DNA of 64,000 nt from Candidatus Omnitrophota bacterium (GTDB lineage Bacteria > Omnitrophota > Gorgyraeia > Gygaellales > Profunditerraquicolaceae): NCBI GenBank assembly GCA_041651035.1, contig JBAZKC010000002.1, positions 120,697 to 184,696 on the forward strand, read 5' to 3'. The position numbers were made by a program, and so were the translations under genes. Position 1 is the first letter of the stretch. Every line of letters begins with the position of its first letter. Positions 4,475-44,705 of this stretch are shown piece by piece. Under the pieces are notes generated by a model, which made no database searches, was not told the DNA's origin, and was given only the letters and a program-made list of their open reading frames with translations.

Positions 4475-5509
<1,035 letters not shown>

Positions 5510-5532
5510 TTTTTTAGAAGTTTATCTGCTGG

Positions 5533-5570
5533 AAAAGGAGCGACAGAAATGTCGCTCCTTTTTTGTTTTA
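5533..5570 (+). terminator. Rho-independent terminator after gap
   Basis: Hairpin ggagcgaca-gaaa-tgtcgctcc followed by ttttttg. Confidence 0.8.
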
Positions 5571-5577
5571 TCATGAC

Positions 5578-5640
5578 AGGGACTGTCCCCGCAGTCGGCT
5601 ATAGCGTAGCAAACTAAAGGGGACTGTCCCTAAGATAAAA
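5578..5640. repeat. Two copies of the GGGACTGTCCC palindrome (GGGGAC-N-GTCCCC family) separated by about 30 nt
   Basis: Direct reading: gggactgtcccc ... ggggactgtccctaag. The arms GGGAC and GTCCC are reverse complements. Confidence 0.8.
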
Positions 5641-5707
5641 ATCAGGTATAACTCTTTTCGTTAGAAAATAAGAGTTCCTGCGTCTATTATAAGTGAGGGC
5701 ATAAATT

Positions 5708-6403
5708 ATGGAGCTTAAAAAGCGTATACCTATAAACAACTGGCCTAAGGAAGACCGGCCCAGGGAGAAGCTATTAGAGAATGGCGAGCATACTTTAAGC
5801 GATTCCGAGCTGCTGGCGATCATTTTGAGGACAGGAGTAAAGGGAGAAAGCGCCTTGGATCTGGCAAGGAGGATTTTACGGAAATTTAAGACTTTTCGTA
5901 AAATGGGGCAGGCGGATCCGCATCACTGGAAGGAATTAAAGGGCCTGGGTGACGCGAAGCTTGCCCAGATAAAAGCATCCATCGAGATAGCAAGAAGATA
6001 CCAGGAAGAAAAACTTAAGGAGAGCCGTCCTAAAGTAGAGTCTTCAAAAGATGTGGTTGGTATCCTCAGGCCCCGGATGCAGGATTTAAAAAAAGAGGTA
6101 TTTAAGGTTTTGTTCTTAAATTCACAAAACAGGATTATAGATATAATTGAGATAGAGGAAGGAAGCGTGGATCAGGCAAGGCCTATAATAAGAGAGGTTT
6201 TTCAAGAGGCCCTAAAGCAGTTTGCTTCTTTTCTGATCTGTGTCCACAATCATCCTTCCGGAGATCCTAAGCCTAGCGAAGAAGACAAAGAGTTCACGCG
6301 GGCATTAGCTACCGCAGGAGACGCGCTGCTTATAAAATGCCTGGATCATATAATTATCGGAAACGGGAGTTATTTCAGTTTTTGTGATGAGAAGCTTATT
6401 TAA
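5708..6403 (+). CDS. radC: DNA repair protein RadC (JAMM/MPN-domain, UPF0758)
   Basis: C-terminal HNHPSGDPKPSEED JAMM-like motif. N-terminal helix-hairpin-helix-like region. Confidence 0.85.
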   Translation: MELKKRIPINNWPKEDRPREKLLENGEHTLSDSELLAIILRTGVKGESALDLARRILRKFKTFRKMGQADPHHWKELKGLGDAKLAQIKASIEIARRYQEEKLKESRPKVESSKDVVGILRPRMQDLKKEVFKVLFLNSQNRIIDIIEIEEGSVDQARPIIREVFQEALKQFASFLICVHNHPSGDPKPSEEDKEFTRALATAGDALLIKCLDHIIIGNGSYFSFCDEKLI

Positions 6404-6621
6404 GGAAGGAAGTCCTGAAGTTTCTTTTTATAGATCGCCGCGAATTCTTTTAATTGGACGGTGTCAATGCGGCGCTGTCCGGCTTCTAATTTGGAGATGT
6501 AGGATTGCGTCCTGCCTAATTTTTTAGCCGCGTCTACCTGCCTGAGTTTTGCCGCTTTACGCGCTTTAATCAGCTTACCGACTAAATCCTTATGGCTCTT
6601 TGTAAAAATAGTTTTATCCAT
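6400..6621 (-). CDS. XRE-family helix-turn-helix transcriptional regulator of 74 aa. The ORF track over-extends upstream; the start is taken at MDKTIF.
   Basis: KLRQVDAAKKLGRTQSYISKLEAGQRRIDTVQL is a canonical HTH_3 (XRE) motif. Confidence 0.7.
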   Translation of the reverse strand: MDKTIFTKSHKDLVGKLIKARKAAKLRQVDAAKKLGRTQSYISKLEAGQRRIDTVQLKEFAAIYKKKLQDFLP

Positions 6622-6666
6622 TTCGCTTGACACCTCAGGATTCCTATAATATACTAATCTTGTTAA

Positions 6667-6685
6667 TATTCCAAAATGGAATATA
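6667..6685. promoter_or_regulatory. Perfect inverted repeat atattcca-aaa-tggaatat upstream of the XRE regulator gene; candidate operator
   Basis: Direct reading. It sits in the divergent promoter region between the xre gene and the secreted-protein gene. Confidence 0.4.
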
Positions 6686-6829
6686 GATATTAGGCAGATT
6701 AGGATGAAACACCCTGCGCTTATCGTGCCCGGAGCATAACAGGTATTGCGCCGGGTATAACCCAATAAGTTACACCCAAACATATCGGATTGTTTGGTGT
6801 GGCCTTTCTGGCCAAGGAGGGTTTAATCT

Positions 6830-7321
6830 ATGCGAAAATTAGGGTTTTTAGTTGTTTTTATCTTGGGTTTATTTAATTTATGCCTTGCCGCGGAGGAATC
6901 CATTACCATTACTACGTATTATCCGTCACCTTATGGAAGCTATAACCAAGTAGAGGTGCACCGCAGCGTTACTTATAAACCGGTAGATAAGAATACGCTT
7001 GATGATCCTAAAGAAGGGGAGTTGGTTTATAATTCTTCTGATGATTCGTTATATCTTTACAACGGCTCTACCTGGGTAAAGCAAGGAGGAGGGAGTACCT
7101 GCGTCGTCACCTACAATAGTGTTGTTGGTAGCTGTAGTTGTCCCAGTGGTTGGACTCTTAAACTAGATCTCGGTCCCTGGGGCTACTGCTACAGCACCTA
7201 CTACCGCCCCGCCTTTTTCCGCCCGCCGGGCGGAGGCTGCCCCAGCGACAGCAACTGGGGGGGGAGCGGCACCAATATCGGCGCCTCTCTCGGTGAGGGT
7301 TGTTTTTGTTGCCAAAACTAA
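6830..7321 (+). CDS. Secreted hypothetical protein with a signal peptide and a C-terminal domain containing 10 Cys
   Basis: N-terminal MRKLGFLVVFILGLFNLCLA signal peptide. C-terminal CSCPSGW...CYSTYY...GGGCPSD...GCFCCQN. SD aaggaggg upstream. Confidence 0.6.
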   Translation: MRKLGFLVVFILGLFNLCLAAEESITITTYYPSPYGSYNQVEVHRSVTYKPVDKNTLDDPKEGELVYNSSDDSLYLYNGSTWVKQGGGSTCVVTYNSVVGSCSCPSGWTLKLDLGPWGYCYSTYYRPAFFRPPGGGCPSDSNWGGSGTNIGASLGEGCFCCQN

Positions 7322-8092
7322 ATGATTCGTAGGGGAAACTGGTTATTTATTACACTTTTCTTTTGCTCCAACACTTTTGCTTACGATATTAAACCTTATT
7401 TAAACCAATCTCCTTGCGAGGACGAAAAACTTAACTTGGTTTTTTGTTCTTTAAATTACCAAAATAAAGAAGATTCCTTAGAAGATACAAAGATACTTAT
7501 CCGAAGGCTAAAGGGAACCAATCCTTTTGATGAATTCAGGAACCTTGGATTTTGGTATATAGCCCTATCTAAAGAGGAAGAGAGGGAGATCTTCAAGCCA
7601 GCGCCAAGTTTTCCTCCCTGGCAAGTCCCTCAAGGCTTCATAAACAGTATCTCCAAACGCATTAAATCTGTTTACAAGTTAATCATAATTGACGCAAGAG
7701 GATATGTCTCATGTTCGGAGTTATCTTCTCTTGCTAAAACTTCTTTGATCATGTTAGGTAAGGCACGATATAAAGATGAAAACAGTTTTACTAAAGGGTT
7801 TTTGCATGAGTTGGGCCATTCTTTAGGCCTGCGTGATGAGAGTCCGCAGGGTGAAGCAATGCTTTGTTTACCCGGGCCGCCAAATTGCGCCGTTACCAGG
7901 CAGGAAGCAGAGAGGCTTTGGGGTGATCTAGTAGGAAAAGATTCAAGAGCAAATTATATTTCCGGCTGCTGCGGGAATAAGAATTATATCCGGCCAACCA
8001 TTGCTTCTTTGATGAATGATCCGGATAAGGCAGAGGATTTTGGTCCGGTGAATGAGAGGTATTTGCGCCATGTTTTAGGGATAGGCCCCTAA
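7322..8092 (+). CDS. Putative secreted zinc metallopeptidase with an HExxHxxGxxDE motif (M64-like)
   Basis: Hydrophobic N-terminus, HELGHSLGLRDES motif and a Cys-rich C-terminus. The start abuts the stop of the upstream gene. Confidence 0.5.
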   Translation: MIRRGNWLFITLFFCSNTFAYDIKPYLNQSPCEDEKLNLVFCSLNYQNKEDSLEDTKILIRRLKGTNPFDEFRNLGFWYIALSKEEEREIFKPAPSFPPWQVPQGFINSISKRIKSVYKLIIIDARGYVSCSELSSLAKTSLIMLGKARYKDENSFTKGFLHELGHSLGLRDESPQGEAMLCLPGPPNCAVTRQEAERLWGDLVGKDSRANYISGCCGNKNYIRPTIASLMNDPDKAEDFGPVNERYLRHVLGIGP

Positions 8093-8146
8093 GATCGATT
8101 CTCCGAGAACCACCTATCGGGGTCAGTCCCCTGGATTTAAAAATCT

Positions 8147-8176
8147 TGACATTGTATATCATTATGATATACTTTA
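8147..8176 (+). promoter_or_regulatory. Sigma70-like promoter for the toxin-antitoxin operon: TTGACA-N16-TATACT
   Basis: Direct reading: cttgacattgtatatcattatgatatact, followed by the SD ggaggtg. Confidence 0.55.
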
Positions 8177-8192
8177 AGCGGAGGTGATAAAG

Positions 8193-8426
8193 ATGTCCGC
8201 GATGATGAATAAAGAATTGTTGATAAGGATGCCATCTTCTCTTTATGAACAAACGATTAAACTCTCCAGGAAAAGATACATGACCATTTCTTCTTTTATC
8301 CGGGAATTGATTATCGAACAGGTAGAAAGCTCTCTATCCGCGGAAGAAGAAAAGATTGTCGCGCAGGCCGAGAGGCAGTATCTAAAAGGAAGAGGCGTTA
8401 ACTGGAGAAAAGTGAAGCGTGGTTAA
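8193..8426 (+). CDS. Ribbon-helix-helix (CopG-like) antitoxin
   Basis: Small protein directly upstream of, and overlapping, a RelE/ParE toxin gene. SD ggaggtg upstream. The ORF track begins at a GTG at 8184. Confidence 0.6.
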   Translation: MSAMMNKELLIRMPSSLYEQTIKLSRKRYMTISSFIRELIIEQVESSLSAEEEKIVAQAERQYLKGRGVNWRKVKRG

Positions 8427-8691
8427 CTTTGAAGTCCTTTTAATGCCTCAAGCGCTTAAATTCTATAAAACCTGTCCGGAAGAACTCGCCGGCAGGCTAA
8501 ATAAGTGCTTTGAAGAGCTAGAAGGCAATCCTTTCTTCGGGCCGAATATTAAAATATTGAAAGGCGAAAAGAGGCGTTATAGATATCGTATAGGTACCTA
8601 TCGGGTAATTTACGGCATTGACAAAGAAAGCAATAAGGTTATTATTACTTTAATTGCTCCCCGCCATTCTGTATATCGAAATATAAGTTAA
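8419..8691 (+). CDS. RelE/ParE-family type II toxin. Start is either GTG at 8419 or ATG at 8443.
   Basis: YRYRIGTYRVIYGIDKESNKVIITLIAPRHSVY is the typical RelE/ParE C-terminal region. 8-nt overlap with the antitoxin. Confidence 0.7.
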   Translation: MVNFEVLLMPQALKFYKTCPEELAGRLNKCFEELEGNPFFGPNIKILKGEKRRYRYRIGTYRVIYGIDKESNKVIITLIAPRHSVYRNIS

Positions 8692-8708
8692 CGAATAAAT
8701 CTTTCCGC

Positions 8709-8790
8709 AGGGGCTGTCCCTTAACTTCGGCTTAGGGACAGGCTCCTAAGACCAGCCCTTAGGGGACTACATTTCGGACCCAGTCCCTGT
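8709..8790. repeat. Cluster of GGGGAC-N-GTCCCC family palindromes
   Basis: Copies: aggggctgtccctta, cttagggacaggctcctaag, cccttaggggactac...cagtccctg. Confidence 0.7.
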
Positions 8791-8812
8791 TTTTTATGCT
8801 ATAATCCCGCTT

Positions 8813-11068
8813 ATGAACTATCTAACCGTACTGGTTATAGGCTTAAGTGGGATAGTCGTGCAGGTTTTGCTTTTGCGCGAACTGCTGGTGAGTTTCTACG
8901 GCAATGAATTAACCTTAGGGATAATTCTGGCTAATTGGATTCTCGCGGAAGCTTCGGGCGTATTTATCTCCGGGAAGTTTATTGAAAGGGTTAAAAATAA
9001 AGCAAACGTATTTATTATACTACAGGTATTATTTTCCATACTATTGCCTGTATCTATTTATTTGTCCCGCACCTTTAAGAGCCTGATAGGCATTCCTTTT
9101 GGCGAAGGAGTGGGATTATACACCATATTTTATGCTTCTTTCTTGATAATCCTTCCGGTGGGGTTCTGCCACGGTGCATTATTCAGCTCTCTGTGCAAGA
9201 TATGCTCTATAAAGATTAAAGATTTGGCCGGCGCGATAGGCAAAGTATATGCGTGGGAGACGATCGGCACAATCTGCGGCGGAATAATCCTTACCTATCT
9301 ATTCATACCATATCTGAATTCTTTTCAAATAGTTTTCATCCTATCCGTAATTAATCTTGCGGCTTGTTTATTTTTCTTTAAAGATACGGCTAAGGTTTTG
9401 AAATATATTGTTTTGGTTTTGATATTTACGGCAAGTATTTTTTCTTTGCAAGGCGGGATAAAATACCTGAACAAGCTTTCTATCAATAAACAATGGAAGC
9501 AGCAGGAAATCCTGGATTACCGGAATTCTAATTACGGCAATATTGTCGTAACCAAAAGAGAGGGGCAATACACGTTTTTTTATAACGGCATACCTGTAAT
9601 AACTACTCCGTATCCGGACAAGCAATTCGTCCAGGAATTCGGGAATTTGCCTTTGTTATTTTCTAAAAGCCCTAAAGAGGTACTGGTAATAAGCGCCGGG
9701 GCAGGCGGCCTGATAAACGAGATCTTGAAACACCCTGTAAAAAAGATTGATTACGCGGAACTTGATCCTTTACTCATAGAAATGTTAAGGCAATATCCGT
9801 CAGAACTCACGCAAAAGGAATTAACCGATCCGCGGGTTAATATTATGAATTTAGACGGCAGGTTTTTCGTTAAGAATACGCCTAATAAATATGATGTAAT
9901 TTTGATCGGCCTATCTAAGCCGTCGGATTTAAGCGCAAACCGCCTGTTTACCCGCGAATTCTTTTTTTTGGCTAAAGAGAGGCTAAATCCGGATGGGATA
10001 GTAGCGTTAACTTTACCCGGTTCCCTGACTTATCTAAGCCGGGAATTAAAAGACATTAATGCCTGCGTATTGAATGGGCTTAAAGATAGCTATGCTTATG
10101 TCCGTGTTATCCCCGGAGATTACAATATGTTCTTGGCTTCTAACAGTAGAGATATACTGGAAATCACTCCGGATATAATTACGCGAAAGATAGAGCGGAA
10201 AAATATAAGAACCGATATTCTGGTACCAGCTTACATAAACTTTAGGCTAAATAAGGCATGGTCGGATTGGTTCCAGCGTTCATTAACAGGGGCAACCGAA
10301 AAAGTTAACCAGGACCTAAGGCCTTTTGCGGTATTCCAGATGCTGATTCTTTGGAATAAGCAGTTTTCTCCGGGGCTTGCGTATATTTTTGGAATGTTGG
10401 GGAATTTGAATACAGGTTTCTTAGCGGTATTAATATTAGGCATAACTTTGATATTATTTTGTATCTTTTGTAGGAAACGAAGCACCAGTCCAGCTATTGT
10501 ATACAGTATTGCTACTACGGGATTATTCGGCATGCTGGCAAATCTGGTCTTGATCTTTAGTTTCCAGGTTTTCTATGGTTATTTATATTATATGATAGGA
10601 ATATTGATCAGTATCTTTATGGCCGGCATAGCGCTGGGCAGTATTTTTATGACAACTGCCCTTAAAAGGATTAAGGATGGCTTAAGGTTATTTATTGAGC
10701 TTGAGGCAGGGATAATCGTATTTTCCTGCATAATGGCAGTAACATTAACCAGATTTATGTGGTCAGCTCGCCATATCCCATTGATTTTTGCCACACTGCT
10801 TTTTATTTCCGGGTTATTTCTAGGATTGGAATTTCCTCTGGCAAGTAGAATATATCCGGGAAGAAAGGAAGAGGCGGGTAATACTGTAGGAGTGCTTTAT
10901 AGCGCTGACCTGATAGGCGGCTGGGTTGCTGGTGTATTGGGGAGCATTATATTGCTGCCTGTTTTAGGGCTTTTTAATACCTGCCTGGTTATAATTATGT
11001 TTAAACTAAGCAGCCTCTTTCTATTAGGGACACCCAATCTGCTAAAGCCGAGGGTGTCCCCTAAATAA
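8813..11068 (+). CDS. Polytopic membrane protein fused to a spermidine-synthase-like (aminopropyltransferase/methyltransferase fold) domain
   Basis: Multi-transmembrane N-terminus. Central region VLVISAGAGGLINEIL...NIMNLDGRFF...YDVILIG matches the spermidine synthase fold. A TATAAT lies 7 nt upstream of the ATG. Confidence 0.65.
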   Translation: MNYLTVLVIGLSGIVVQVLLLRELLVSFYGNELTLGIILANWILAEASGVFISGKFIERVKNKANVFIILQVLFSILLPVSIYLSRTFKSLIGIPFGEGVGLYTIFYASFLIILPVGFCHGALFSSLCKICSIKIKDLAGAIGKVYAWETIGTICGGIILTYLFIPYLNSFQIVFILSVINLAACLFFFKDTAKVLKYIVLVLIFTASIFSLQGGIKYLNKLSINKQWKQQEILDYRNSNYGNIVVTKREGQYTFFYNGIPVITTPYPDKQFVQEFGNLPLLFSKSPKEVLVISAGAGGLINEILKHPVKKIDYAELDPLLIEMLRQYPSELTQKELTDPRVNIMNLDGRFFVKNTPNKYDVILIGLSKPSDLSANRLFTREFFFLAKERLNPDGIVALTLPGSLTYLSRELKDINACVLNGLKDSYAYVRVIPGDYNMFLASNSRDILEITPDIITRKIERKNIRTDILVPAYINFRLNKAWSDWFQRSLTGATEKVNQDLRPFAVFQMLILWNKQFSPGLAYIFGMLGNLNTGFLAVLILGITLILFCIFCRKRSTSPAIVYSIATTGLFGMLANLVLIFSFQVFYGYLYYMIGILISIFMAGIALGSIFMTTALKRIKDGLRLFIELEAGIIVFSCIMAVTLTRFMWSARHIPLIFATLLFISGLFLGLEFPLASRIYPGRKEEAGNTVGVLYSADLIGGWVAGVLGSIILLPVLGLFNTCLVIIMFKLSSLFLLGTPNLLKPRVSPK

Positions 11069-11146
11069 AAAATAATTCCGGACAGGGGGACACCCTCCCG
11101 ATTGGCTGAAAGGGTGTCCCTCGATTGGCAAGTTGGGTGTCCCTAA
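11026..11146. repeat. Five copies of GGGACACCC / GGGTGTCCC, including a 9-bp-arm hairpin overlapping the CDS end and two direct cgattggcNNNNgggtgtccc units
   Basis: Direct reading: agggacaccc...gagggtgtcccctaa ... gggggacaccctcccgattggctgaaagggtgtccctcgattggcaagttgggtgtccctaa. Confidence 0.8.
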
Positions 11147-11212
11147 AAGGAATTGACAGGAAATATAATTTAATATATATTATAGTCTTAATTAAATAGG
11201 GGGTATTAAGGC

Positions 11213-12394
11213 ATGAGCAAGATGGGTATAAAGGATATGGATTTAAAGGGTAAGACGGTATTGATGCGCGCGGATTTTAATGTGCCGCAGGATGCCAGTT
11301 TAAACATTACCGATGATATACGCATAAGAGGGACATTGCCTACCATAAAATATATATTGCAAAACGGCGCTAAAAAGCTGGTATTAATGAGCCATTTAGG
11401 CAGGCCGGATGGCAAGATTGTGGAAAAATACAGCCTTAAGCCGGTGGCGCTTAGATTAAAGGATTTATTGGGTGAGCCTGTAAGATTCTTGAATGACTGC
11501 GTAGGCGATGATATCAAGAAAGAGATCAGTGAGTCAAAAGAAAGAATAATACTTTTAGAAAATTTAAGGTTTCACGCTGAAGAAGAAGCTAATGATCCCG
11601 GTTTTTCTAAGCAATTAGCTTCTTTAGCGGATGTATTTGTCAATGACGCATTTGGCACAGCCCACCGCGCGCACGCCTCTACAGAGGGCGTTACTCATTA
11701 TCTTAAGTCCGCGGCAGGTTTTCTTTTGGAAAAAGAGATCGAATATTTAGGTAATGCTGTGCAAGATCCTGTCCGGCCGTTTATGGTTATTTTGGGCGGC
11801 GCTAAGGTTTCCGATAAGATAGGGGTTATTGAGAATTTACTTCCAAAATGCGACGCTATTTTGATAGGCGGAGGCATGGCCTACACGTTTCTTAAGGCGC
11901 AGGGAAAAACTATCGGTAATTCTAAGCTGGAGAAAGACAAGCTTGAACTGGCTAAAGGGCTCCTGGATAAGGCAAAGAAATTAAATAAAGAGATTATTTT
12001 ACCCATAGATCACATAGTGGTAGAAAATATTGATCCTAATGCTAAAACAGAGATCGCGGGAGAAAATATCCCCGATGGAAAGATCGCGGTTGATGTCGGG
12101 CCAAAGACCATTTCTTTGTTTAAGGATAAATTGAGATCAGCTAAAACCATTGCCTGGAACGGGCCTTTGGGCATTTTTGAAATGGACGCGTTTAGTAAGG
12201 GTACGCGTGAAGTTGCCGAGTTTATCGCCACTTTAAAGTGCGTTACGATCATCGGAGGCGGAGATACCGCGGCAGCAGTGGCAAAGTTCAAGCTGGAAGA
12301 TAAGATGACCCATATCTCCACCGGCGGCGGAGCGAGTTTGGAGTATCTGGAAGGAAAGGCTTTGCCGGGAATTGCCGCGCTTACGGATAGGTAG
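11213..12394 (+). CDS. pgk: Phosphoglycerate kinase
   Basis: VLMRADFNVP motif and GGGASLE motif. Confidence 0.95.
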   Translation: MSKMGIKDMDLKGKTVLMRADFNVPQDASLNITDDIRIRGTLPTIKYILQNGAKKLVLMSHLGRPDGKIVEKYSLKPVALRLKDLLGEPVRFLNDCVGDDIKKEISESKERIILLENLRFHAEEEANDPGFSKQLASLADVFVNDAFGTAHRAHASTEGVTHYLKSAAGFLLEKEIEYLGNAVQDPVRPFMVILGGAKVSDKIGVIENLLPKCDAILIGGGMAYTFLKAQGKTIGNSKLEKDKLELAKGLLDKAKKLNKEIILPIDHIVVENIDPNAKTEIAGENIPDGKIAVDVGPKTISLFKDKLRSAKTIAWNGPLGIFEMDAFSKGTREVAEFIATLKCVTIIGGGDTAAAVAKFKLEDKMTHISTGGGASLEYLEGKALPGIAALTDR

Positions 12395-15338: not shown

Positions 15339-16561
15339 TGCGCAGTGTCTTAACATTTATAATGGCAGGCGGTAAAGGAGAGCGGCTGTATCCTTTAACT
15401 AAAGACAGGGCCAAGCCGGCAGTGCCGTTTGGCGGCATATACAGGATCATAGACTTTACTTTAAGTAACTGCATAAATTCAGGCCTGCGCAAGATTTATC
15501 TTCTTACCCAGTATAAATCCGCCTCTTTACAAAGGCATATACGGCTTGGCTGGAATATTTTACCGTCTGAGTTAGGCCAATTCATCGAGATACTTCCCGC
15601 CCAACAGAGGGTCGGCGAATCCTGGTATTTGGGGACTGCCGACGCGATCTATCAAAATCTTTACACCTTAGAGATTGATTATCCTGATGAAGTCCTGATA
15701 CTGGCCGGAGATCATATTTATAAAATGAATTACTATACCATGATAGACTATCATCGGGAACAGGACGCGGATTTGACGGTGGGGGTGGTAGAGGTAGATA
15801 AGGACAAGGCCGCTCATTTAGGCGTAGTAGAGGTAGATAATGCCGGCAAGGTAATAGGATTTGAAGAGAAACCCGCCAAGCCTAAAACAATACCCTATCA
15901 GCCGGATAAGATATACGCGTCTATGGGCATATATGTTTTTAAGCATCCCATCCTTGAGCAGGAGCTTCAGGAGGACGCCAAGAAACGCAGCTCTACCCAT
16001 GATTTTGGCAAGGACATAATCCCGCAGATGCTTAAGAAGGGCTTAAAGGTGGCTGTCTTTAACTTTATCGACGAGAATAAGAAAGAGGCGCAATATTGGC
16101 GGGATATCGGGACTATGGATGCCTATTATGAAGCGAATATGGATTTAGTGCAGGTTGATCCCGTATTTAATCTTTATGACAAAAACTGGCCCATAAGAAC
16201 CCTTCAGGAACAATTTCCTTCAGCTAAAACAGTATTCTCCGGTGAAGAAGTTACCGGCAGGGTGGGTTTAGTGCTTGATTCTGTAGTTTCTAACGGCTGC
16301 ATCGTAAGCGGCGGCAGGGTCCAGCGTTCAATACTTTCTCCGAATGTCAGGGTGAATAGTTACTGCCAGGTTTACGATTCTATCCTTATGGAAGGCGTGA
16401 ATGTGGCTAGATACGCGAAAATAAAGAAGGCAATAATTGATAAAGATGTAAGTATCCCCCAGGGCGTAGTGATCGGATATGACCCGGAAGAAGACAAAAA
16501 AAGGTTTTATGTGACTGAATCAGGGATAGTCGTAGTGGCGAAAGGGACGGAGATTAAATGA
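15335..16561 (+). CDS. glgC: Glucose-1-phosphate adenylyltransferase
   Basis: N-terminal AGGKGERLYPLTKDRAKPAVPFGG motif. C-terminal left-handed beta-helix region. Confidence 0.9.
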   Translation: MMRSVLTFIMAGGKGERLYPLTKDRAKPAVPFGGIYRIIDFTLSNCINSGLRKIYLLTQYKSASLQRHIRLGWNILPSELGQFIEILPAQQRVGESWYLGTADAIYQNLYTLEIDYPDEVLILAGDHIYKMNYYTMIDYHREQDADLTVGVVEVDKDKAAHLGVVEVDNAGKVIGFEEKPAKPKTIPYQPDKIYASMGIYVFKHPILEQELQEDAKKRSSTHDFGKDIIPQMLKKGLKVAVFNFIDENKKEAQYWRDIGTMDAYYEANMDLVQVDPVFNLYDKNWPIRTLQEQFPSAKTVFSGEEVTGRVGLVLDSVVSNGCIVSGGRVQRSILSPNVRVNSYCQVYDSILMEGVNVARYAKIKKAIIDKDVSIPQGVVIGYDPEEDKKRFYVTESGIVVVAKGTEIK

Positions 16562-17007
16562 TCCGTAAAGCCAGGATAGAAGACATAAAAGAGATACAAG
16601 GCTTAATCCAGTATTTTGCTAAGCTGGACTTGATGCTGCCGCGTTCTTTGAATGAGCTGTATGAGAATTTAAGGGATTTCTGGGTATGCGAAGAAAACAA
16701 TAAGATCGTGGGCTGCGCCGCTGTGCATATTTCCTGGGATGATTTAGTAGAAATAAAATCTGTAGCCGTAGCAAAGACAAGGCAAGGCAAGGGAATAGGC
16801 AAAGAATTAATATCCACATGCCTGAATGAGGCCAAGCATCTTGGAGCCAAGAGAATATTCGTGCTCACCTATAAGCCGGATTATTTTAAAAAATTCGGGT
16901 TCAAGAGAGTAAAAACTTCCGACTTGCCCCATAAAGTCTGGGCGGAATGCATTAATTGCTGCAAATTCCCGGACTGCCAGGAAATCGCCCTTCTAAAACA
17001 ATTGTAA
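16558..17007 (+). CDS. GNAT-family N-acetyltransferase (N-acetylglutamate-synthase-like)
   Basis: Acetyl-CoA-binding motif VAKTRQGKGIGKELI. Confidence 0.7.
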   Translation: MIRKARIEDIKEIQGLIQYFAKLDLMLPRSLNELYENLRDFWVCEENNKIVGCAAVHISWDDLVEIKSVAVAKTRQGKGIGKELISTCLNEAKHLGAKRIFVLTYKPDYFKKFGFKRVKTSDLPHKVWAECINCCKFPDCQEIALLKQL

Positions 17008-17064
17008 AAATAGATTATTATGGTATAATCGCACTTTCACTGTCCCTATATTAAGGAGGAAGAT

Positions 17065-27150: not shown

Positions 27151-29820
27151 ATGCAGGCAGATACCCTAAGAAAGAAATTCCTGGATTTTTTCAAATCCAA
27201 AAAACACAAGATCGTAGATAGCGACAGCCTGGCTCCTAAAGATGACCCGACCGTGTTGTTTACTCCGGCAGGGATGAACCAGTTTAAAAAGCAGTTCCTG
27301 GGCCACTTGACCGGCTTCTCCCGCGCCGCTACCAGCCAGAGATGTTTGCGCACAGATGACTTAGATAAAGTCGGCAAAACCCCCAGCCACCATACGTTCT
27401 TTGAAATGCTGGGAAATTTTTCTTTCGGGGATTATTTTAAAGAAGAGGCGATTGCCTGGGCCTGGGAATTCCTGACCAAAGAACTTAAGATCAATGAAGG
27501 CAAGCTTTGGGTTTCCGTATACAAAGACGATGATGAATCGTATAAGATATGGAAGGATAAGATAAAGGTGCCGGCAAATAAAATTGTAAAGTTAGGCGAT
27601 AAAGAAAACTTCTGGCCGTCTGAAGCAAAAGAAAAGGGGCCTAATGGCCCGTGCGGGCCGTGTTCCGAGATATTTTATGACCAGGGCGGAGGTTGTGGTA
27701 AGCCTGATTGCGGCCCTGCCTGCAGCTGCGGGAGGTTCCCGGAGATCTGGAATCTTGTATTTACGCAGTTTAACCGCAAAGCAGACGGGAAATTAGAGCC
27801 TTTGCCTAAAAAGAATATAGATACCGGTATGGGCCTGGAGAGGCTGGCGGCGGTTATGCAGGGTATGTCTAATAATTTTGAGACGGACCTGTTTAGGCCG
27901 ATAATCAAAGAAATTCTTTCTAGCGCAAAGAATAAGTCCGCTAATGATGTAGTTTATCCGGTAGCCGATCATATTCGCGCAATCGTCTTTGCTGTGTATG
28001 ATGGCGTATTACCTTCTAACGAAGGCCGCGGTTATGTGGTAAGAAAATTAATCCGTAAGTCTGTGCTTGCTTTGCGTCAATTAGGCATAGAGAAACCGTT
28101 CTTATATAAATTGGTGCCTGTATTAGCTGAAGTTATGAAGGCTCCTTATCCTGAATTATCCGGGCAAAAAGAGAATATCGCGCAGATTATCCTGGTGGAA
28201 GAAAATAATTTCATTCAAACCTTGAATTCTAGTGACGATATTATAAGAGAAAAAAATAAGCCTGTGCTAGATATGGCTAAAAATGATGGTGTTGATGCTG
28301 GCTATATTATAGCCAGCATACCTACAACAGGAACCGCAGCCATTACTGCTGTTAAGCTCTATGATACTTATGGTATACCCCTTGATTTAACAAGAGACTG
28401 GTGGGAAGAGAATATAAAAATAAAGTTTATTGAAAATGTATATACGGATAGCCTTGTTAAAGAATTAGAAAAGCATAAAGCACTCTCAAAGTCCCGCAGC
28501 GCGATGAAAGGCGATGTTTTTGATTTTAAAGATTTACATATAACGGCTACCAAGACTAATTTTTCCGGGTATGCAAAATACGAAACCAAAGCCAAGGTTT
28601 TAAAGATTATCAAAGATAGCGCGCCAGTTAAGAAGATAACTAAAGGCGAAGAAGCCCAGGTGATCTTAGATAAAACCGTATTTTACCCGGAATCAGGCGG
28701 GCAGGTAGGAGATACAGGCGAACTTATTAAAGGAAAAAATATTTTTCAGGTTACGGATACGCAAAAGTTTGATAAGGTTATTGTGCATAAAGGCGTAGTC
28801 AGAGAAGGCAGCTTTAAGAATGCGGATGAATTAAAAGCCTGTGTGGATATTGAGCGCAGGTTGTCTATAGGAAGAAACCATACTGCTACCCATCTTTTGC
28901 AGGCAGCCTTAAGGGAAGTTTTAGGCGCCCATGTGCAGCAGCAAGGATCTCTTGTCGCGGAAGATAAATTAAGGTTTGATTTTACGCATTTTAAGGCCTT
29001 AACCTCCGAACAGGTAGGCCGCGTAGAACAGATAGTCAATGAGCACATAATGAATAACGAAAGTTTGTCTATGAAGGAAATGTCTTTATCTCTGGCTAAA
29101 AAAACAGGGGCATTAGCTTTTTTTGGCGAAAAATACGAAGGTAAGGTGCGTGTAGTTTCAATCGGAAAAGTTTCTAAGGAGTTTTGCGGCGGCACACATC
29201 TGGATTCAACAGGACAGATCGGCTTATTTAAAATTATCCAGGAAGGTTCAGTCGCATCCGGAGTCAGAAGGATAGAGGCAGCAACAGGAAGGGCGGCCTA
29301 TAAGATCGCTAAAGAAGAAAAAGATATCGTAGCTGAGGCGGCTTCTCTTTTGGGGGTGCCCAAAGATAAGATACTTCAGGAGTTAGATAAACGTTTAGTT
29401 AAGGTTAAAGACCTGGAAAAGCGTTTAAGTTCGCAAATATTGGATATTGCCAGGTCTAACATAGACGAGTTGATAGAAAAAGCGCAAATAATAAACGGCA
29501 CAAAGGTCATAGCCGCTATGTTAGAAGGTTTAAATATGGATCTATTAAGAAAAAACGTGGACTTGATTAAAGAAAAAACGAATAACGCGGTTATAGCTTT
29601 AGGTTCTAATATTGAAGGCAGGGTGTTTTTGGTAATAGGTATAACTCCTGATTTAATTATAAAAGGATTAGATGCCTCAGTATTGATACGCGATATTGCC
29701 AAACTGATCGGAGGCAGCGGCGGCGGGAGAAAAGATTTCGCGCAGGCCGGCGGCAATAAACCGGAGAATTATCAAGAGGCCATAGAGAAACTAAAAGACA
29801 CTCTTGGGAAAACACTATGA
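27151..29820 (+). CDS. alaS: Alanine--tRNA ligase
   Basis: Class II motifs, HxxxH...CxxxH editing domain, C-terminal DHHA1 domain. Confidence 0.95.
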   Translation: MQADTLRKKFLDFFKSKKHKIVDSDSLAPKDDPTVLFTPAGMNQFKKQFLGHLTGFSRAATSQRCLRTDDLDKVGKTPSHHTFFEMLGNFSFGDYFKEEAIAWAWEFLTKELKINEGKLWVSVYKDDDESYKIWKDKIKVPANKIVKLGDKENFWPSEAKEKGPNGPCGPCSEIFYDQGGGCGKPDCGPACSCGRFPEIWNLVFTQFNRKADGKLEPLPKKNIDTGMGLERLAAVMQGMSNNFETDLFRPIIKEILSSAKNKSANDVVYPVADHIRAIVFAVYDGVLPSNEGRGYVVRKLIRKSVLALRQLGIEKPFLYKLVPVLAEVMKAPYPELSGQKENIAQIILVEENNFIQTLNSSDDIIREKNKPVLDMAKNDGVDAGYIIASIPTTGTAAITAVKLYDTYGIPLDLTRDWWEENIKIKFIENVYTDSLVKELEKHKALSKSRSAMKGDVFDFKDLHITATKTNFSGYAKYETKAKVLKIIKDSAPVKKITKGEEAQVILDKTVFYPESGGQVGDTGELIKGKNIFQVTDTQKFDKVIVHKGVVREGSFKNADELKACVDIERRLSIGRNHTATHLLQAALREVLGAHVQQQGSLVAEDKLRFDFTHFKALTSEQVGRVEQIVNEHIMNNESLSMKEMSLSLAKKTGALAFFGEKYEGKVRVVSIGKVSKEFCGGTHLDSTGQIGLFKIIQEGSVASGVRRIEAATGRAAYKIAKEEKDIVAEAASLLGVPKDKILQELDKRLVKVKDLEKRLSSQILDIARSNIDELIEKAQIINGTKVIAAMLEGLNMDLLRKNVDLIKEKTNNAVIALGSNIEGRVFLVIGITPDLIIKGLDASVLIRDIAKLIGGSGGGRKDFAQAGGNKPENYQEAIEKLKDTLGKTL

Positions 29821-41245: not shown

Positions 41246-41602
41246 ATGAGAGACTTACTATTCAAAAATCTAACTTCGGTAGACAGAAAGCGTAAGGTAG
41301 TGTCCACCTCCGAAACTATGGAGAATCAGGGCATTAGAAGCGTAATACGCCGTCATTTTGTTTGTATGATGAAAGAGGTTATGGCCGAGGATATGGAAAA
41401 AAAGCCTTCGCCGTATCTTTATGTTTTAAAGATCCGCAATGCCAAAGAGCAAAAAGAGAAGTTTTTCTGCAGGATAAAAGGAAGCGTGTACGCGATAAAT
41501 AAGGGCAGGATATTCCTTATTGTTTTCGCGCATTCTTTAAAAGTTGATCTTGCGGCTACGACTCATGATCTGGCAGGATATAAGGAGGATAATAGTACCT
41601 AA
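41246..41602 (+). CDS. Hypothetical protein of 118 aa
   Basis: ORF with upstream SD gaggaat; no family recognised. Confidence 0.4.
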   Translation: MRDLLFKNLTSVDRKRKVVSTSETMENQGIRSVIRRHFVCMMKEVMAEDMEKKPSPYLYVLKIRNAKEQKEKFFCRIKGSVYAINKGRIFLIVFAHSLKVDLAATTHDLAGYKEDNST

Positions 41603-41662
41603 CTCTTTGGGGCATAAAGAGTTTTATCTCTGATTATTGTTAGGAATACGCGGAAAATCTAG

Positions 41663-41698
41663 GGGACGGTTCTAGAATAGAACCGTCCCCTTGTTTTT
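41663..41698 (+). terminator. Perfect 13-bp-arm palindrome ggggacggttcta-gaa-tagaaccgtcccc followed by a T-run. It is a terminator and a member of the GGGGAC/GTCCCC family.
   Basis: Direct reading. Confidence 0.75.
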
Positions 41699-41762: not shown

Positions 41763-41869
41763 ATCCCGCCTCGTAAGATATGCCAAAATTCTCTTCGTTA
41801 CCTTCGGTAACTTTGATAATTTTGGCATACTCGGCGGGATATCTTTGCGCATTATAAATGCGCAAAGAT
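41763..41869. repeat. Composite structured element: the 22-mer cccgcctcgtaagatatgccaaaatt, an inner hairpin gttacc-ttcg-ggtaac, an inverted partial copy aattttggcatactcggcggg, and the perfect palindrome atctttgcgcatt-ata-aatgcgcaaagat
   Basis: Direct reading. The 22-mer is identical to 2384-2405 apart from one substitution. Confidence 0.75.
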
Positions 41870-41914: not shown

Positions 41915-44659
41915 ATGCAAAAACAGCCCACCAGGGTATTATCAATCTGTATAATTCTATTTTTATGCCTGACTACCAGTTCGGCTTTTGCCGCGTCTCA
42001 GGCAGCGCAGTATCTTTCTGAATTCGGCGCCACATTTTATCGCATGGGTAAGTTTGATGATGCCTTAGGCGAGTTTGAAAAAGTGCTCATGATTGAGCCT
42101 GATAACCAAGAGGCAAAAGCCTATATCAGGCTTATTTTTCAGAAGGAAGCGGCAGTACGCGCTCAAGCTCAAGTTAATCCCCTGGCAAAATCTTCAATAG
42201 GCGGGGCACCGGATGTAGATAATGTTAAACCAAGCCGGGAAGACGCGATCTCGAATACTTTAAACCAATTAGACAGTGAAAGTTCTTATGGGAAAAAACC
42301 AGGCACATCTTTAAATAAAGGCATAGTAATAAGCGGAGAAGCAATGCTGAGCCTGGGCGTTACGCCTCATGATGTGATCTGGAAACGGGCTAATTTTGAC
42401 TTAAACGAGGAATATCAAAGCTGGCGCAGGAATTCCACCGCGGTTTTTAACCGTGGTTTTAATACTTATGACCCGAGGGTTTATGATTCGCTGGTTATAA
42501 ACGCGGATACTCAAAATAAAGAAGGCTTCAATTTCCATACCAATATTACGATAGATCCCTGGAGTTTTGTAGGTAAGAGCGACAAGATCACGGTTACCGG
42601 TTCCAACGGCGATACCGCCCAGTTGCAGCTGTATTACTGGTCCAACACCGGTTATGTGGTAAATGACACGGCATATACTTCCTCTAAGGGGGATAGTTTC
42701 GGGATCCCCGAAGTAAAAGTAAAAAATGGAATATCCGATGGTTTTACTTCCACTTCTTACCGCTTAGGCGCCACTTACGATGTCCCCGCCATGAAGATCA
42801 AGCGGGAGTTCCAGCCGTTGCGCGAGTTATGGCTGAATTATAATAATGACCAGCTGAAATTCAGGGCGTTTCCCATGTCTTATCAGGACCAGGCTTATTC
42901 TTCAGATGATCCCATGGGGATAACTAATCACGGTATATGGTGGAACGAAAGTAAGTGGCTGCGCCAGTATACGCCAGGCAATTATAACTCCGGGGATACG
43001 ACACCCAGTTATACTAAGGGCTATTGGAATGACGCTCTTTCTTCCTTAAGTAAAGATTCTACCGGCAAATATTTAACCGCTTTAAGAGGTTTCTCTTTCA
43101 CCATCCAGCCGCAGGAACAGGTTTCTTTTGACACTACTATTGCCACGCCTAAAAACCTCTGGCAGGATTATGGACAGGTAGATAACATTATTTCCGCCAG
43201 CCGCCTTAAATATAAGCCGAAAGATAACTTTATGCTGGGCAGTACCTTTACCAGCCGCACGGGATTTATAACCGAAAAAAAACAGGAACTAGACAGCCGG
43301 AACTTTGTTGCCGGAGTGGATCTAGGATATGAGATAGCTGATGGGATAAAAGCCCAGGCAGAAGCATTGGGTTCTAAGTCATACTATGATGAGAGCAATT
43401 CTAACTACAGGACACAAGACCAGGGTAACGCCTACTATTTTTCTTTAATTACCCGCTACCCCAGAGAAAGCATCATGGACTTAAAATACGGCTATGATGA
43501 AATAGGCATGAAGAAAGGGGAAACTTTCCTGACCAAAAGCAAGTTTTACGCCGCGCGCATGGATAACGGTTTTGATTCAGCGCTTTCTGATTTCCATAAT
43601 ACGCGCCAGGATGTGTTCTGGTCAAGGCATATACATTTTCGCATGCCTTTGAAATATTACAGTTCCGGGCTATATGGCAACAGGACAAATTGGGATGAGT
43701 TAAACGCTACTAAGATAGGCGACGGCATCGATATCGGCCGTAATGTTTTAGGCTACCGTTTTGAAACATTCTTAGAAAATAAATTCTATAACCTTTTTGA
43801 CGTGCGTAACGTGCACAATGTAAAAGGAAAATTCGTGGAAAACGTAGTGCGGGACGAGGCCACTATTAAAGTAACTGATAAATTGACTGCCAAGGTACTG
43901 GGAATTTACCAGAAATTACCCCGGACTACGGGCGGAGTAGACCCTTTTATATACGATGGGGTAACAGGCGATTTTTTCCTTAACTCGGCAGTCCCTGACG
44001 GAGAGGATCCTTCTATTAAAACAGGTTCCTTTGGCTTAAATTATGATTTCTTTGATTGGTTGAGTATAAATGGTATATATGAACGCACGAATGATTATAG
44101 CCTGGCGTATGGCGGTTTCCCTCAGGATGTATATATAAACAATACTACCTTGTACGGGACCTATTACCAGAATGACAAACTCTACCGCGCTATTCAGTCT
44201 TTTCTTTACAACCAGCAGTATTATCCGCAGGCGCCTTATCCTTACTACAACGTGGCTAAGGCCGGGTTAAGGTTGGCCCCGTTTAAGAATATGGAGATGT
44301 ATATTGACTATGCTTATAACGAATTCAAGGCTGCCTCCATGAATTCCGACGGCATGAACCACGTAGGCTTTGAAGTAGCCTATATGCCGACCAGCAAATT
44401 CGGCATGGCTTTAAAATATATTTTCTCGCGTTCTCAGGATATGGATCATTTACTGGCAGGTGACGACAATATGATAGGGCACCATAACTTTTTTGGAGAA
44501 TTCAGGTATCTTCCTTCTAAAGACGATGAGCTTATCCTGCAGTACGGAGAAGGCAATAGCAGCGCTATCGGCAATATGGTTTTGGACCCTTACGGTGGCA
44601 GCATGCTTACCTTAGACACGCAGCATATTTTCCGCGCTTATTATCGTAGAAAATTTTAA
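41915..44659 (+). CDS. Large secreted protein of 914 aa: signal peptide, N-terminal TPR-like segment, aromatic/Asn/Gly-rich body and C-terminal Phe. Putative outer-membrane beta-barrel.
   Basis: Signal peptide MQKQPTRVLSICIILFLCLTTSSAFAAS; TPR-like YRMGKFDDALGEFEKVLMIEPDN; terminal ...YYRRKF. Confidence 0.55.
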   Translation: MQKQPTRVLSICIILFLCLTTSSAFAASQAAQYLSEFGATFYRMGKFDDALGEFEKVLMIEPDNQEAKAYIRLIFQKEAAVRAQAQVNPLAKSSIGGAPDVDNVKPSREDAISNTLNQLDSESSYGKKPGTSLNKGIVISGEAMLSLGVTPHDVIWKRANFDLNEEYQSWRRNSTAVFNRGFNTYDPRVYDSLVINADTQNKEGFNFHTNITIDPWSFVGKSDKITVTGSNGDTAQLQLYYWSNTGYVVNDTAYTSSKGDSFGIPEVKVKNGISDGFTSTSYRLGATYDVPAMKIKREFQPLRELWLNYNNDQLKFRAFPMSYQDQAYSSDDPMGITNHGIWWNESKWLRQYTPGNYNSGDTTPSYTKGYWNDALSSLSKDSTGKYLTALRGFSFTIQPQEQVSFDTTIATPKNLWQDYGQVDNIISASRLKYKPKDNFMLGSTFTSRTGFITEKKQELDSRNFVAGVDLGYEIADGIKAQAEALGSKSYYDESNSNYRTQDQGNAYYFSLITRYPRESIMDLKYGYDEIGMKKGETFLTKSKFYAARMDNGFDSALSDFHNTRQDVFWSRHIHFRMPLKYYSSGLYGNRTNWDELNATKIGDGIDIGRNVLGYRFETFLENKFYNLFDVRNVHNVKGKFVENVVRDEATIKVTDKLTAKVLGIYQKLPRTTGGVDPFIYDGVTGDFFLNSAVPDGEDPSIKTGSFGLNYDFFDWLSINGIYERTNDYSLAYGGFPQDVYINNTTLYGTYYQNDKLYRAIQSFLYNQQYYPQAPYPYYNVAKAGLRLAPFKNMEMYIDYAYNEFKAASMNSDGMNHVGFEVAYMPTSKFGMALKYIFSRSQDMDHLLAGDDNMIGHHNFFGEFRYLPSKDDELILQYGEGNSSAIGNMVLDPYGGSMLTLDTQHIFRAYYRRKF

Positions 44660-44705
44660 TCTCGCGCATTGCAAATGCGCGAGATTTTGCCATATCTTAG
44701 GAGTC
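44658..44705. terminator. Bidirectional terminator palindrome aatctcgcgcatt-gca-aatgcgcgagatt between convergent genes, fused to an inverted copy of the CTCNTAAGATATGSCAAAA element
   Basis: Direct reading. The palindrome belongs to the same family as 41841-41869. Confidence 0.7.

Follow-up and report, generated by a model that had tools for sequence, protein, structure and literature searches.

What kind of element are the short palindromes that recur between the genes of a Candidatus Omnitrophota bacterium, each framed by GGGAC on one side and GTCCC on the other? The stretch analysed here, referred to as the window, comprises 64 kb of a metagenome-assembled genome (MAG) of this lineage, for which a first-pass annotation had described an intergenic repeat family resembling repetitive extragenic palindromic (REP) sequences. 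REP elements, and the REP doublets forming hairpins (REPINs), are well known in Proteobacteria. The REP-like label is supported by the present analysis: the repeats are short imperfect palindromes, they are extragenic, they occur as inverted doublets and in clusters, and their sites are filled in some related genomes and empty in others. Overall, the palindromes of the window are read as a REP/REPIN-type family of short, non-autonomous hairpin repeats, with a probability of roughly 0.7.

The first-pass annotation had set two outcomes against its own proposal, namely a motif no more frequent than the composition of the genome predicts and a motif confined to the window. Neither was observed. 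When the repeat foot was scored as GGGAC...GTCCC, six GGGAC-N(1-31)-GTCCC hairpins were found in the window, compared with 0.65 ± 0.81 expected from 100 dinucleotide shuffles, none of which reached six. The motif is also present in metagenome contigs and in two syntenic relatives found through PGK, L004 (86% identical) and L006 (85%), which contain five hairpins in 17 kb and seven in 21 kb, respectively, against about 0.2 expected. REP/REPIN families are dispersed over the genome, typically in more than 100 copies per genome; the density per 10 kb is 0.9 in the window and 2.9-3.3 in L004 and L006. Fourteen GGGAC or GTCCC pentamers lie in or beside four spacers of the window that sum to about 550 nt, and over the whole window the pentamer is not enriched (81 observed, about 80 expected). 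A ranking of k-mers across the window did not bring up the motif, being dominated by codon-bias words, and a search against Rfam, both at the gathering threshold and at E ≤ 1, gave nothing at the repeats, its sole hits being a tRNA-Met and weak matches on the gap terminator.

All window copies are intergenic or lie at the 3′ end of a coding sequence (CDS). Four loci are found in the gap-pgk interval and a fifth at 41.66 kb, in addition to a degenerate copy and a relic:

5579..5630, + strand: A-B, a REPIN-like doublet with 12-nt arms GGGACTGTCCCC and GGGGACTGTCCC and a loop of N28
8119..8131, no strand given: C, a degenerate single unit GGGGTCAGTCCCC, one mismatch from GGGGACAGTCCCC
8710..8746, + strand: D1/D2, hairpin GGGGCTGTCCCTTAAC-TTCG-GCTTAGGGACAGGCTCC, downstream of the ParE toxin gene
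8758..8795, + strand: D3, hairpin CTTAGGGGACT-N13-AGTCCC (inner form GGGACT-N13-AGTCCC), followed by the T-run TGTTTTTT
11024..11064, + strand: E, hairpin TTAGGGACACCC-N16-GGGTGTCCCCTAA (DNA fold z-score, z, of -4.6)
11085..11146, + strand: F, comprising F1, GGGGGACACCC-N16-GGGTGTCCC, and a partial direct copy F2, TCGATTGGCAAGTTGGGTGTCCCTAA
17039..17051, + strand: relic right arm ACTGTCCCTATAT of a GGGACGGTTC...GAACCGTCCC hairpin, recognised from the alignment with L006
41659..41698, + strand: G, hairpin CTAGGGGACGGTTCTA-GAA-TAGAACCGTCCCC followed by TTGTTTTT, after the gene 41246-41602

Every variant listed by the annotation was found at its place when the coordinates were rechecked, and the CTTAGG/CCTAAG-type flanks that it reported are real. 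Its consensus GGGGAC-N-GTCCCC proved to be an idealisation, GGGGAC-N0-6-GTCCCC having no exact match in the window. The direct arrangement with CGATTGGC spacers is indeed present at 11085-11146, and the hairpin said to overlap the last codons of the CDS 8813-11068 is E, which spans the final 14 codons and encodes the last 14 residues of a SpeE-like membrane protein (stop at 11066-11068). Within A-B, GGGACTGTCCC occurs at 5579 and at 5620, and the 28-nt loop holds a small stem of its own (GGCTATAGC); D1/D2 contains GGGGCTGTCCC at 8710 and CTTAGGGACAGGCTCCTAAG at 8730.

The canonical unit, read from the L004 and L006 copies, is a 27-nt hairpin, GGGACTGTCCCC-GMA-GGGGACTGTCCC, with a 12-bp stem, a 3-nt loop, a conserved central T.T mismatch and TA flanks (DNA fold -11.2 kcal/mol, z -5.2). 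A-B is a long-loop form of this unit (loop CxxxxGGCTAxx...CTAA), and further members of the long-loop subfamily lie elsewhere in L004 (15697) and on the metagenome contigs L049, L050, L086, L123 and L116. G has the same foot as the rest of the family, and its subfamily is present at a different locus in L006 (15879). The foot is usually preceded by TA or TTAG, and the diverged subfamilies of the window have other inner stems (ACACCC and ACGGTTC).

What is conserved in these units? The variant GGGTCTGTCCCC-GMA-GGGGACTGACCC, found in L004 and L006, carries a compensatory change in both arms (GGGTC...GACCC) through which the 11-mer palindrome is lost and the stem is kept, indicating that conservation acts on the hairpin and not on the palindrome of the duplex. 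Neighbouring 11-mers at distances of 14-20 nt were almost always of one type (T,T or A,A), in a ratio of 12:2 among the pairs unforced by the scan pattern, and therefore the stem always keeps a T.T or an A.A mismatch. The stem extends into the flanks: in low-GC copies the three flank positions are paired in 93%, 70% and 50% of cases, compared with 67%, 36% and 26% after shuffling, and none of 500 shuffles reached the observed values. In a flank profile of 102 copies, position -1 is A or G (never C, and T in 4 of 102), position -2 is mostly T and position -3 is weakly G, and the flank is usually paired rather than unpaired. GTAG-GGAC is seen at L006 17071 and L004 11631; the window copies have TTAG, CTAG or AAAG. 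As in REP/REPIN elements, the units are short imperfect palindromes forming single-strand stem-loops.

Folding of the individual loci, which the annotation had proposed as a check, separated the copies. A-B (RNA z -5.9; DNA -15.9 kcal/mol, z -4.8), D1/D2 (DNA -10.7 kcal/mol, z -3.2), E and G (perfect 13-bp stem; DNA -15.9 kcal/mol, z -8.3) fold clearly, with DNA z values from -3.2 to -8.3, whereas D3 (8758-8795; DNA z -0.9) and the F unit (11083-11148; DNA z -1.7), each taken alone, fold no better than shuffles. The fold of C is weak (z -1.4). E and F together can form one long composite hairpin, the RNA fold of 11015-11160 reaching -70 kcal/mol (z -7.5).

Comparison with L004 and L006 revealed presence/absence differences at non-orthologous positions, as known for REP/REPIN elements, most copies in these relatives occupying junctions that lack a copy in the window. 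Between the acyl-CoA dehydrogenase and ETF genes, L006 has a 27-mer with a TAG that serves as the stop codon, and the site is empty in the window. At the NTP-transferase/acetyltransferase junction the window genes overlap at ATGA, and an inserted stretch of about 80 nt, containing a hairpin and its own ribosome-binding site, is found in both L004 and L006. At the acetyltransferase/acyl-CoA dehydrogenase junction the L006 hairpin is intact (15879-15905), the window retains the right arm only, and L004 is without the insert of about 65 nt. At the 3′ end of the SpeE-like gene, copy E is present in the window and in L004 and absent in L006, where the CDS ends differently; at the orthologous site of F, L004 has kept the unit and L006 has a reduced form of it. 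The strand of the flanking genes carries all copies in the window and in both relatives.

Two further features of these inserts were observed. Longer flanks, GCATTGCCAGTA-[hairpin]-ACGACAAGATAAGCRTTG, lie just upstream of a ribosome-binding site at L004 11620-11680 and L006 15310-15375 and in L049, L024 and L108; such copies may belong to a composite element that is larger, about 80 nt, and has its own translation signals. In addition, an extended -10 element, TGGTATAAT, is part of the insert with the relic hairpin (window 16985-17064; L006 15842-15924), which L004 lacks, so that the insertion may have brought a promoter before the acyl-CoA dehydrogenase gene.

How far does the family extend beyond this lineage? 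Metagenome contigs of the Joint Genome Institute (JGI) were scanned for exact GGGACTGTCCCCG-N1-31-GGGGACTGTCCC (25 specified bases), and this pattern was found in at least 120 contigs with GC contents of 0.32-0.75 and loops mostly of 3-4 nt. The canonical 27-mer is letter-identical in Omnitrophota, in a Gaiellaceae-like actinobacterial contig (L099, GC 0.68, assigned by a MetK 85-89% identical to Gaiellaceae/Thermoleophilia MAG proteins) and in a Woeseiaceae-like gammaproteobacterial contig (L111, GC 0.58, assigned by the homologues of its transposase and by synteny). The metagenome copies adjoin housekeeping genes, and clustering of the open reading frames (ORFs) beside 120 of them revealed no recurrent neighbour family. 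Low-GC metagenome copies between co-directional genes are sense in 13 cases and antisense in 4, according to crude gene calls; overall, the copies are mostly extragenic, between co-directional or convergent genes, as REP/REPIN elements are. L099, L037, L056 and L120 contain tandem arrays and inverted doublets whose units are spaced about 31 nt apart, and the A-B and E/F loci of the window show the corresponding doublet and cluster arrangement. The 27-mer had no match in 2.9 million viral contigs and chance-level matches only in 72,556 plasmids.

Some copies were found within essential genes. A 27-mer lies in frame at the same site of the ValRS gene in two genomes, in sense orientation in L114 (1152-1178; GLSPKGTVP) and in antisense orientation in L057 (1725-1751; GQSPSGTVP), and another lies in frame in the LeuRS gene of L101 (peptide GDCPRRGLS). 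Since the ValRS site is occupied in opposite orientations, the element appears to flip in place, which could arise through inversion between the outer GGGAC and GTCCC arms. The window gene 27151-29820 was considered as an empty ValRS site and was rejected, the gene encoding AlaRS. Among the high-GC contigs, tandem arrays were observed at L013 3664-3769 (period 17) and at L056 1255-1400 and L037 3738-3882 (period about 59); the latter two are not CRISPR-like, because their spacers are identical or nearly so.

REP, bacterial interspersed mosaic (BIME) and REPIN elements are mobilised by the REP-associated tyrosine transposase (RAYT, or TnpA-REP) in E. coli, Pseudomonas and Stenotrophomonas (PMC2817692, PMC3116915, PMC3733652, PMC6006769). 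A RAYT profile built from 120 homologues was run against six-frame translations of all collected contigs, and it recovered one ORF besides the query loci, at 3320-3766 of L099 (E 1.8e-24). This ORF scores 36.8 bits with Pfam Y1_Tnp (PF01797; cut-off 23), REP_Tyr_transpos ("REP-associated tyrosine transposase") leads its NCBIfam matches at 70.6 bits, and the protein has the HYH and YVLENPV motifs. Inverted doublets of the identical 27/28-mer, about 31 nt apart, flank the gene at either end, a layout in which the RAYT gene is enclosed by its own repeats and which has been described for RAYTs as the REPtron (PMC6006769).

RAYT genes of a related clade were found in L111, in the Woeseiaceae-like MAGs L129-L132 and L134 and in the Planctomycetota MAG L133, and all are flanked by GGGAC-foot hairpins of the form (T)AGGGAC-ATTC...GAAT-GTCCC. 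The L129-L134 loci contain no GGGACWGTCCC 11-mer, just hairpins that share the foot. The foot thus looks like a recognition feature of this RAYT clade, for which a hairpin consisting of feet alone (GGGAC-T-GTCCCC...) could be the minimal substrate. A phmmer search with IS200/YafM sequences found nothing beyond L111 and, in L125, a frameshifted IS200-like gene that is not accompanied by a GGGAC hairpin. In L111, a two-gene module (5460-5890) directly upstream of the RAYT gene stands between two GGGGACATTCT hairpins; judged by eye, it is possibly a HicA/HicB-type toxin-antitoxin pair.

The following traits are shared with known REP/REPIN systems. The units are imperfect palindromes of 20-40 nt with a stem mismatch, extragenic and mostly between co-directional genes; they form inverted doublets with a short spacer and small mosaic clusters; their ends provide TAG or TAA stops; occasional copies are in frame within genes; and in L099 a Y1/HUH transposase gene is bracketed by its own repeats. 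Foot-tagged REPs have been described in eight phyla, including the Planctomycetes-Verrucomicrobia-Chlamydiae (PVC) group; their ends often give TAG stops, some lie within ORFs, and they are found mostly between co-directional and convergent genes (PMC3733652). These habits all match those observed for the GGGAC-foot family. The present family differs from the known systems in its smaller unit, with 12-nt arms and an entire doublet that can be 27 nt long with a 3-nt spacer, in a foot, GGGAC after TA, that replaces the unpaired GTAG or CGTC tag, and in the identical sequence found in Omnitrophota, Gaiellaceae-like and Woeseiaceae-like hosts.

Tiny hairpins that insert in spacers and in frame in protein-coding genes are also known among the small repeats of cyanobacteria, reportedly treated by Elhai et al. 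in 2008 as small dispersed repeats, and among the Rickettsia palindromic elements, which are 100-150 bp long. The GGGAC-foot hairpins share both locations with these repeats and differ from them in sequence and hosts. To our knowledge, no transposase has been linked to the cyanobacterial small dispersed repeats.

Could one and the same minimal element be shared across phyla? We tentatively propose, with rather less than even confidence, that the 27-nt GGGACTGTCCCC-GMA-GGGGACTGTCCC is a minimal REPIN identical in at least three phyla, represented by Omnitrophota, Actinomycetota (Gaiellaceae-like) and Gammaproteobacteria (Woeseiaceae-like). If so, either a RAYT-REPIN pair has crossed phyla repeatedly, or a deep specificity of the RAYT clade for the GGGAC foot makes the "all-foot" hairpin re-emerge independently. 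REP sequences are usually lineage-specific, and either option would run against a picture of vertical inheritance and lineage specificity. The identical hairpin in distant phyla bears on the strict verticality of REPIN-RAYT systems, which the RAREFAN preprint describes as mostly vertically inherited (10.1101/2022.05.22.493013). The element would then also be one that colonises essential genes in frame, as in ValRS and LeuRS. What is unusual in the family is the very small unit, the in-frame aminoacyl-tRNA synthetase copies and, above all, the letter-perfect sharing between distant phyla. With a small, defined substrate (27 nt, T.T mismatch, TA flanks) and a candidate cognate RAYT, it offers a convenient system for studying RAYT recognition and spread. 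An exact-sequence literature search returned eukaryotic primers and similar items only, with nothing on bacterial repeats, and nothing in the literature searched joins Omnitrophota or Gaiella/Gaiellales with "repetitive extragenic palindromic".

How well do other explanations account for these observations? The repeats could be miniature inverted-repeat transposable elements (MITEs) of a TA-duplicating DDE transposon in the style of IS630/Tc1-mariner, in which the 12-nt arms are terminal inverted repeats and TA...TA is the target-site duplication. Window copies are indeed flanked by TTAG...CTAA, and most low-GC copies have TA on both sides, position -1 being A in 25 of 30 (5′) and 23 of 30 (3′) and position -2 being T in 16 of 30 and 15 of 30. 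However, these TA flanks pair and extend the stem by co-varying positions, and therefore may simply belong to the element; the arm mismatch is conserved, which is typical of hairpins recognised single-stranded; and the filled/empty comparisons are too diverged to show a duplication and include no unambiguous empty site with a single TA. No DDE transposase recurs near the copies, and the sole transposase found flanked by the repeat is the Y1/HUH RAYT-like gene, so that a MITE origin is considered unlikely. A reading as operator or nucleoid-protein sites, in which a dimeric protein (the XRE regulator and the RHH antitoxin encoded nearby being candidates) binds duplex GGGAC-W-GTCCC upstream of promoters, would explain the near-perfect 11-mer palindrome and the position of three window loci, which end 7-26 nt upstream of sigma70-like -35 boxes. 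C lies 15 nt upstream of the strong -35 box of the RHH/ParE operon promoter (TTGACA at 8146), and F ends 7 nt upstream of the likewise strong one of the pgk promoter (TTGACA at 11153); D3 abuts the extended -10 element (TGCTATAAT) of the 8813 gene. The conservation of E/F at the orthologous site upstream of pgk also agrees with such a role. It is nevertheless judged quite improbable, given a GGGTC...GACCC variant that breaks the 11-mer palindrome and keeps the hairpin, subfamilies that have the 5-nt foot alone in common and unrelated inner stems, copies in frame within ValRS and LeuRS and past stops between translationally coupled genes, and the same sequence beside unrelated genes in three phyla.

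The terminator reading, which the first-pass annotation had raised for the copy at 41663-41698, has to be separated into its parts. That copy is indeed a 13-bp stem followed by a T-tract, and by eye a sense-strand stem-loop with a T-run is present at 41659-41698 and at 8758-8795, so that a Rho-independent terminator with a G+C-rich stem fits the former and is plausible for the latter, possibly for the toxin-antitoxin operon. A terminator scan of 5000-12000 did not report D3, the loop of which is too long for it. A T-run is lacking in A-B, E and F; most copies of the family likewise have no T-tract, and their sequence is common to unrelated loci and genomes, both of which set them apart from Rho-independent terminators. 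Could all copies nonetheless be independently evolved intrinsic terminators or mRNA 3′ stabilisers, with stems alike only through their G+C richness and without common origin or mobility? The T-tracts of G and D3 are in line with this, as is the placement of all copies downstream of co-directional genes and on the same strand as genes in the window, L004 and L006, together with the 13:4 sense bias at low GC. An identity of at least 25 nt at non-orthologous sites and across phyla is not, however, the convergence of random terminators, and it largely refutes the proposal; some copies, moreover, lie in 5′ UTRs (untranslated regions) or within coding sequences. A-B is not needed for termination, because gap has its own clean terminator at 5533-5565 (listed as 5530-5565 in the same scan), directly preceding A-B. 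Convergent terminators are thus regarded as highly improbable. Least probable of all, and close to negligible, are attC-like junctions of an integron-like or other site-specific recombination system that separates mobile modules between gap and pgk. The repeats do mark the limits of modules in the order gap / radC-HTH-secreted proteins / toxin-antitoxin / speE-like / pgk; the window and L006 have different toxin-antitoxin modules, and L004 has a composite repeat instead of the block. Yet CCCTAAG and CTTAGGG match the core sites RYYYAAC and GTTRRRY at just 5 of 7 positions by inspection, the units are 11-41 nt long compared with 57-141 nt for attC, no integrase was found among the ten neighbouring proteins scanned, and other genomes have single copies of these hairpins between core housekeeping genes and within genes. 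Integron-like cassette junctions were accordingly dropped. Each of the four rival readings conflicts with one or more direct observations.

Several observations weigh against assigning the repeats to the REP/REPIN type. The transposase association proposed by the annotation as a check is borne out in L099, where the gene is flanked by identical 27/28-mer doublets, and not within the 64-kb window, in which, as in the L004 and L006 contigs, no RAYT or IS200-like ORF was found. The L099 RAYT belongs to another phylum, and the step from it to Omnitrophota therefore depends on hairpin identity alone; its score also lies below the NCBIfam equivalog cut-off (70.6 vs 80). The canonical unpaired GT[AG]G tag is matched in part, with GTA as the flank in only about 10 copies out of 102. 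Of the five window loci, four are clustered within 5.6 kb, and most window copies have diverged from the canonical 27-mer.

If the repeats are nevertheless a REP/REPIN-type family, how would they have spread? The Omnitrophota genome of the window would be expected to encode a RAYT. By analogy with the family, this single-copy HUH/Y1 enzyme, encoded elsewhere in the genome, would recognise the folded single-stranded hairpin together with its foot, and would cut and rejoin DNA, thereby seeding copies into spacers and, rarely, in frame into genes. Once in place, copies would be transcribed along with their neighbours. Some may since have acquired functions: G, and perhaps D3, would act as intrinsic terminators, E would supply the 14 C-terminal residues and the stop context of the SpeE-like protein, and E/F, conserved and structured, may have been co-opted to separate the SpeE-like gene from the pgk promoter. 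For annotation, the REP/REPIN reading is of value in explaining hairpins past a good terminator, a C-terminus encoded by a repeat, and indels between syntenic genomes.

The four clustered loci are enclosed by gap (4490-5509) and pgk (11213-12394), 5.7 kb apart, with A-B directly past the gap terminator and upstream of radC. The genes between them are radC, a divergent XRE regulator (6400-6783), two small secreted proteins, the RHH/ParE pair (RHH antitoxin at 8184-8426) and the SpeE-like membrane protein (751 aa, 8813-11068). A SpeE-like gene between gap and pgk is common to the window, L004 (2774-7455) and L006 (3531-11182); a search of genome contigs with this protein gave a single match, in a distant Planctomycetales MAG (53% identity) that does not contain the motif. 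The order in L004 is gap, SpeE-like gene and pgk, the radC-to-toxin-antitoxin block being absent and a composite repeat standing in its place. In L006 the order is gap, radC, an HTH gene, a COLFI protein, a Gp49/HTH_37 toxin-antitoxin pair, the SpeE-like gene and pgk. Since the block holds two small secreted proteins and RHH/ParE in the window and the COLFI protein and Gp49/HTH_37 in L006, a different toxin-antitoxin pair occupies the same slot. Repeat copies stand at the edges of this block.

Other inverted repeats were also observed. The window contains a second, unrelated palindrome pair, ATCTTTGCGCATT-ATA-AATGCGCAAAGAT (41841-41869) and AATCTCGCGCATT-GCA-AATGCGCGAGATT (44658-44686), which brackets a 914-aa TPR gene (41915-44659), two matches being found against 0.01 expected. 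An inverted repeat at 41779-41829, with 24-nt arms TATGCCAAAATTCTCTTCGTTACC and GGTAACTTTGATAATTTTGGCATA that are 83% complementary, shares a long spacer with hairpin G.

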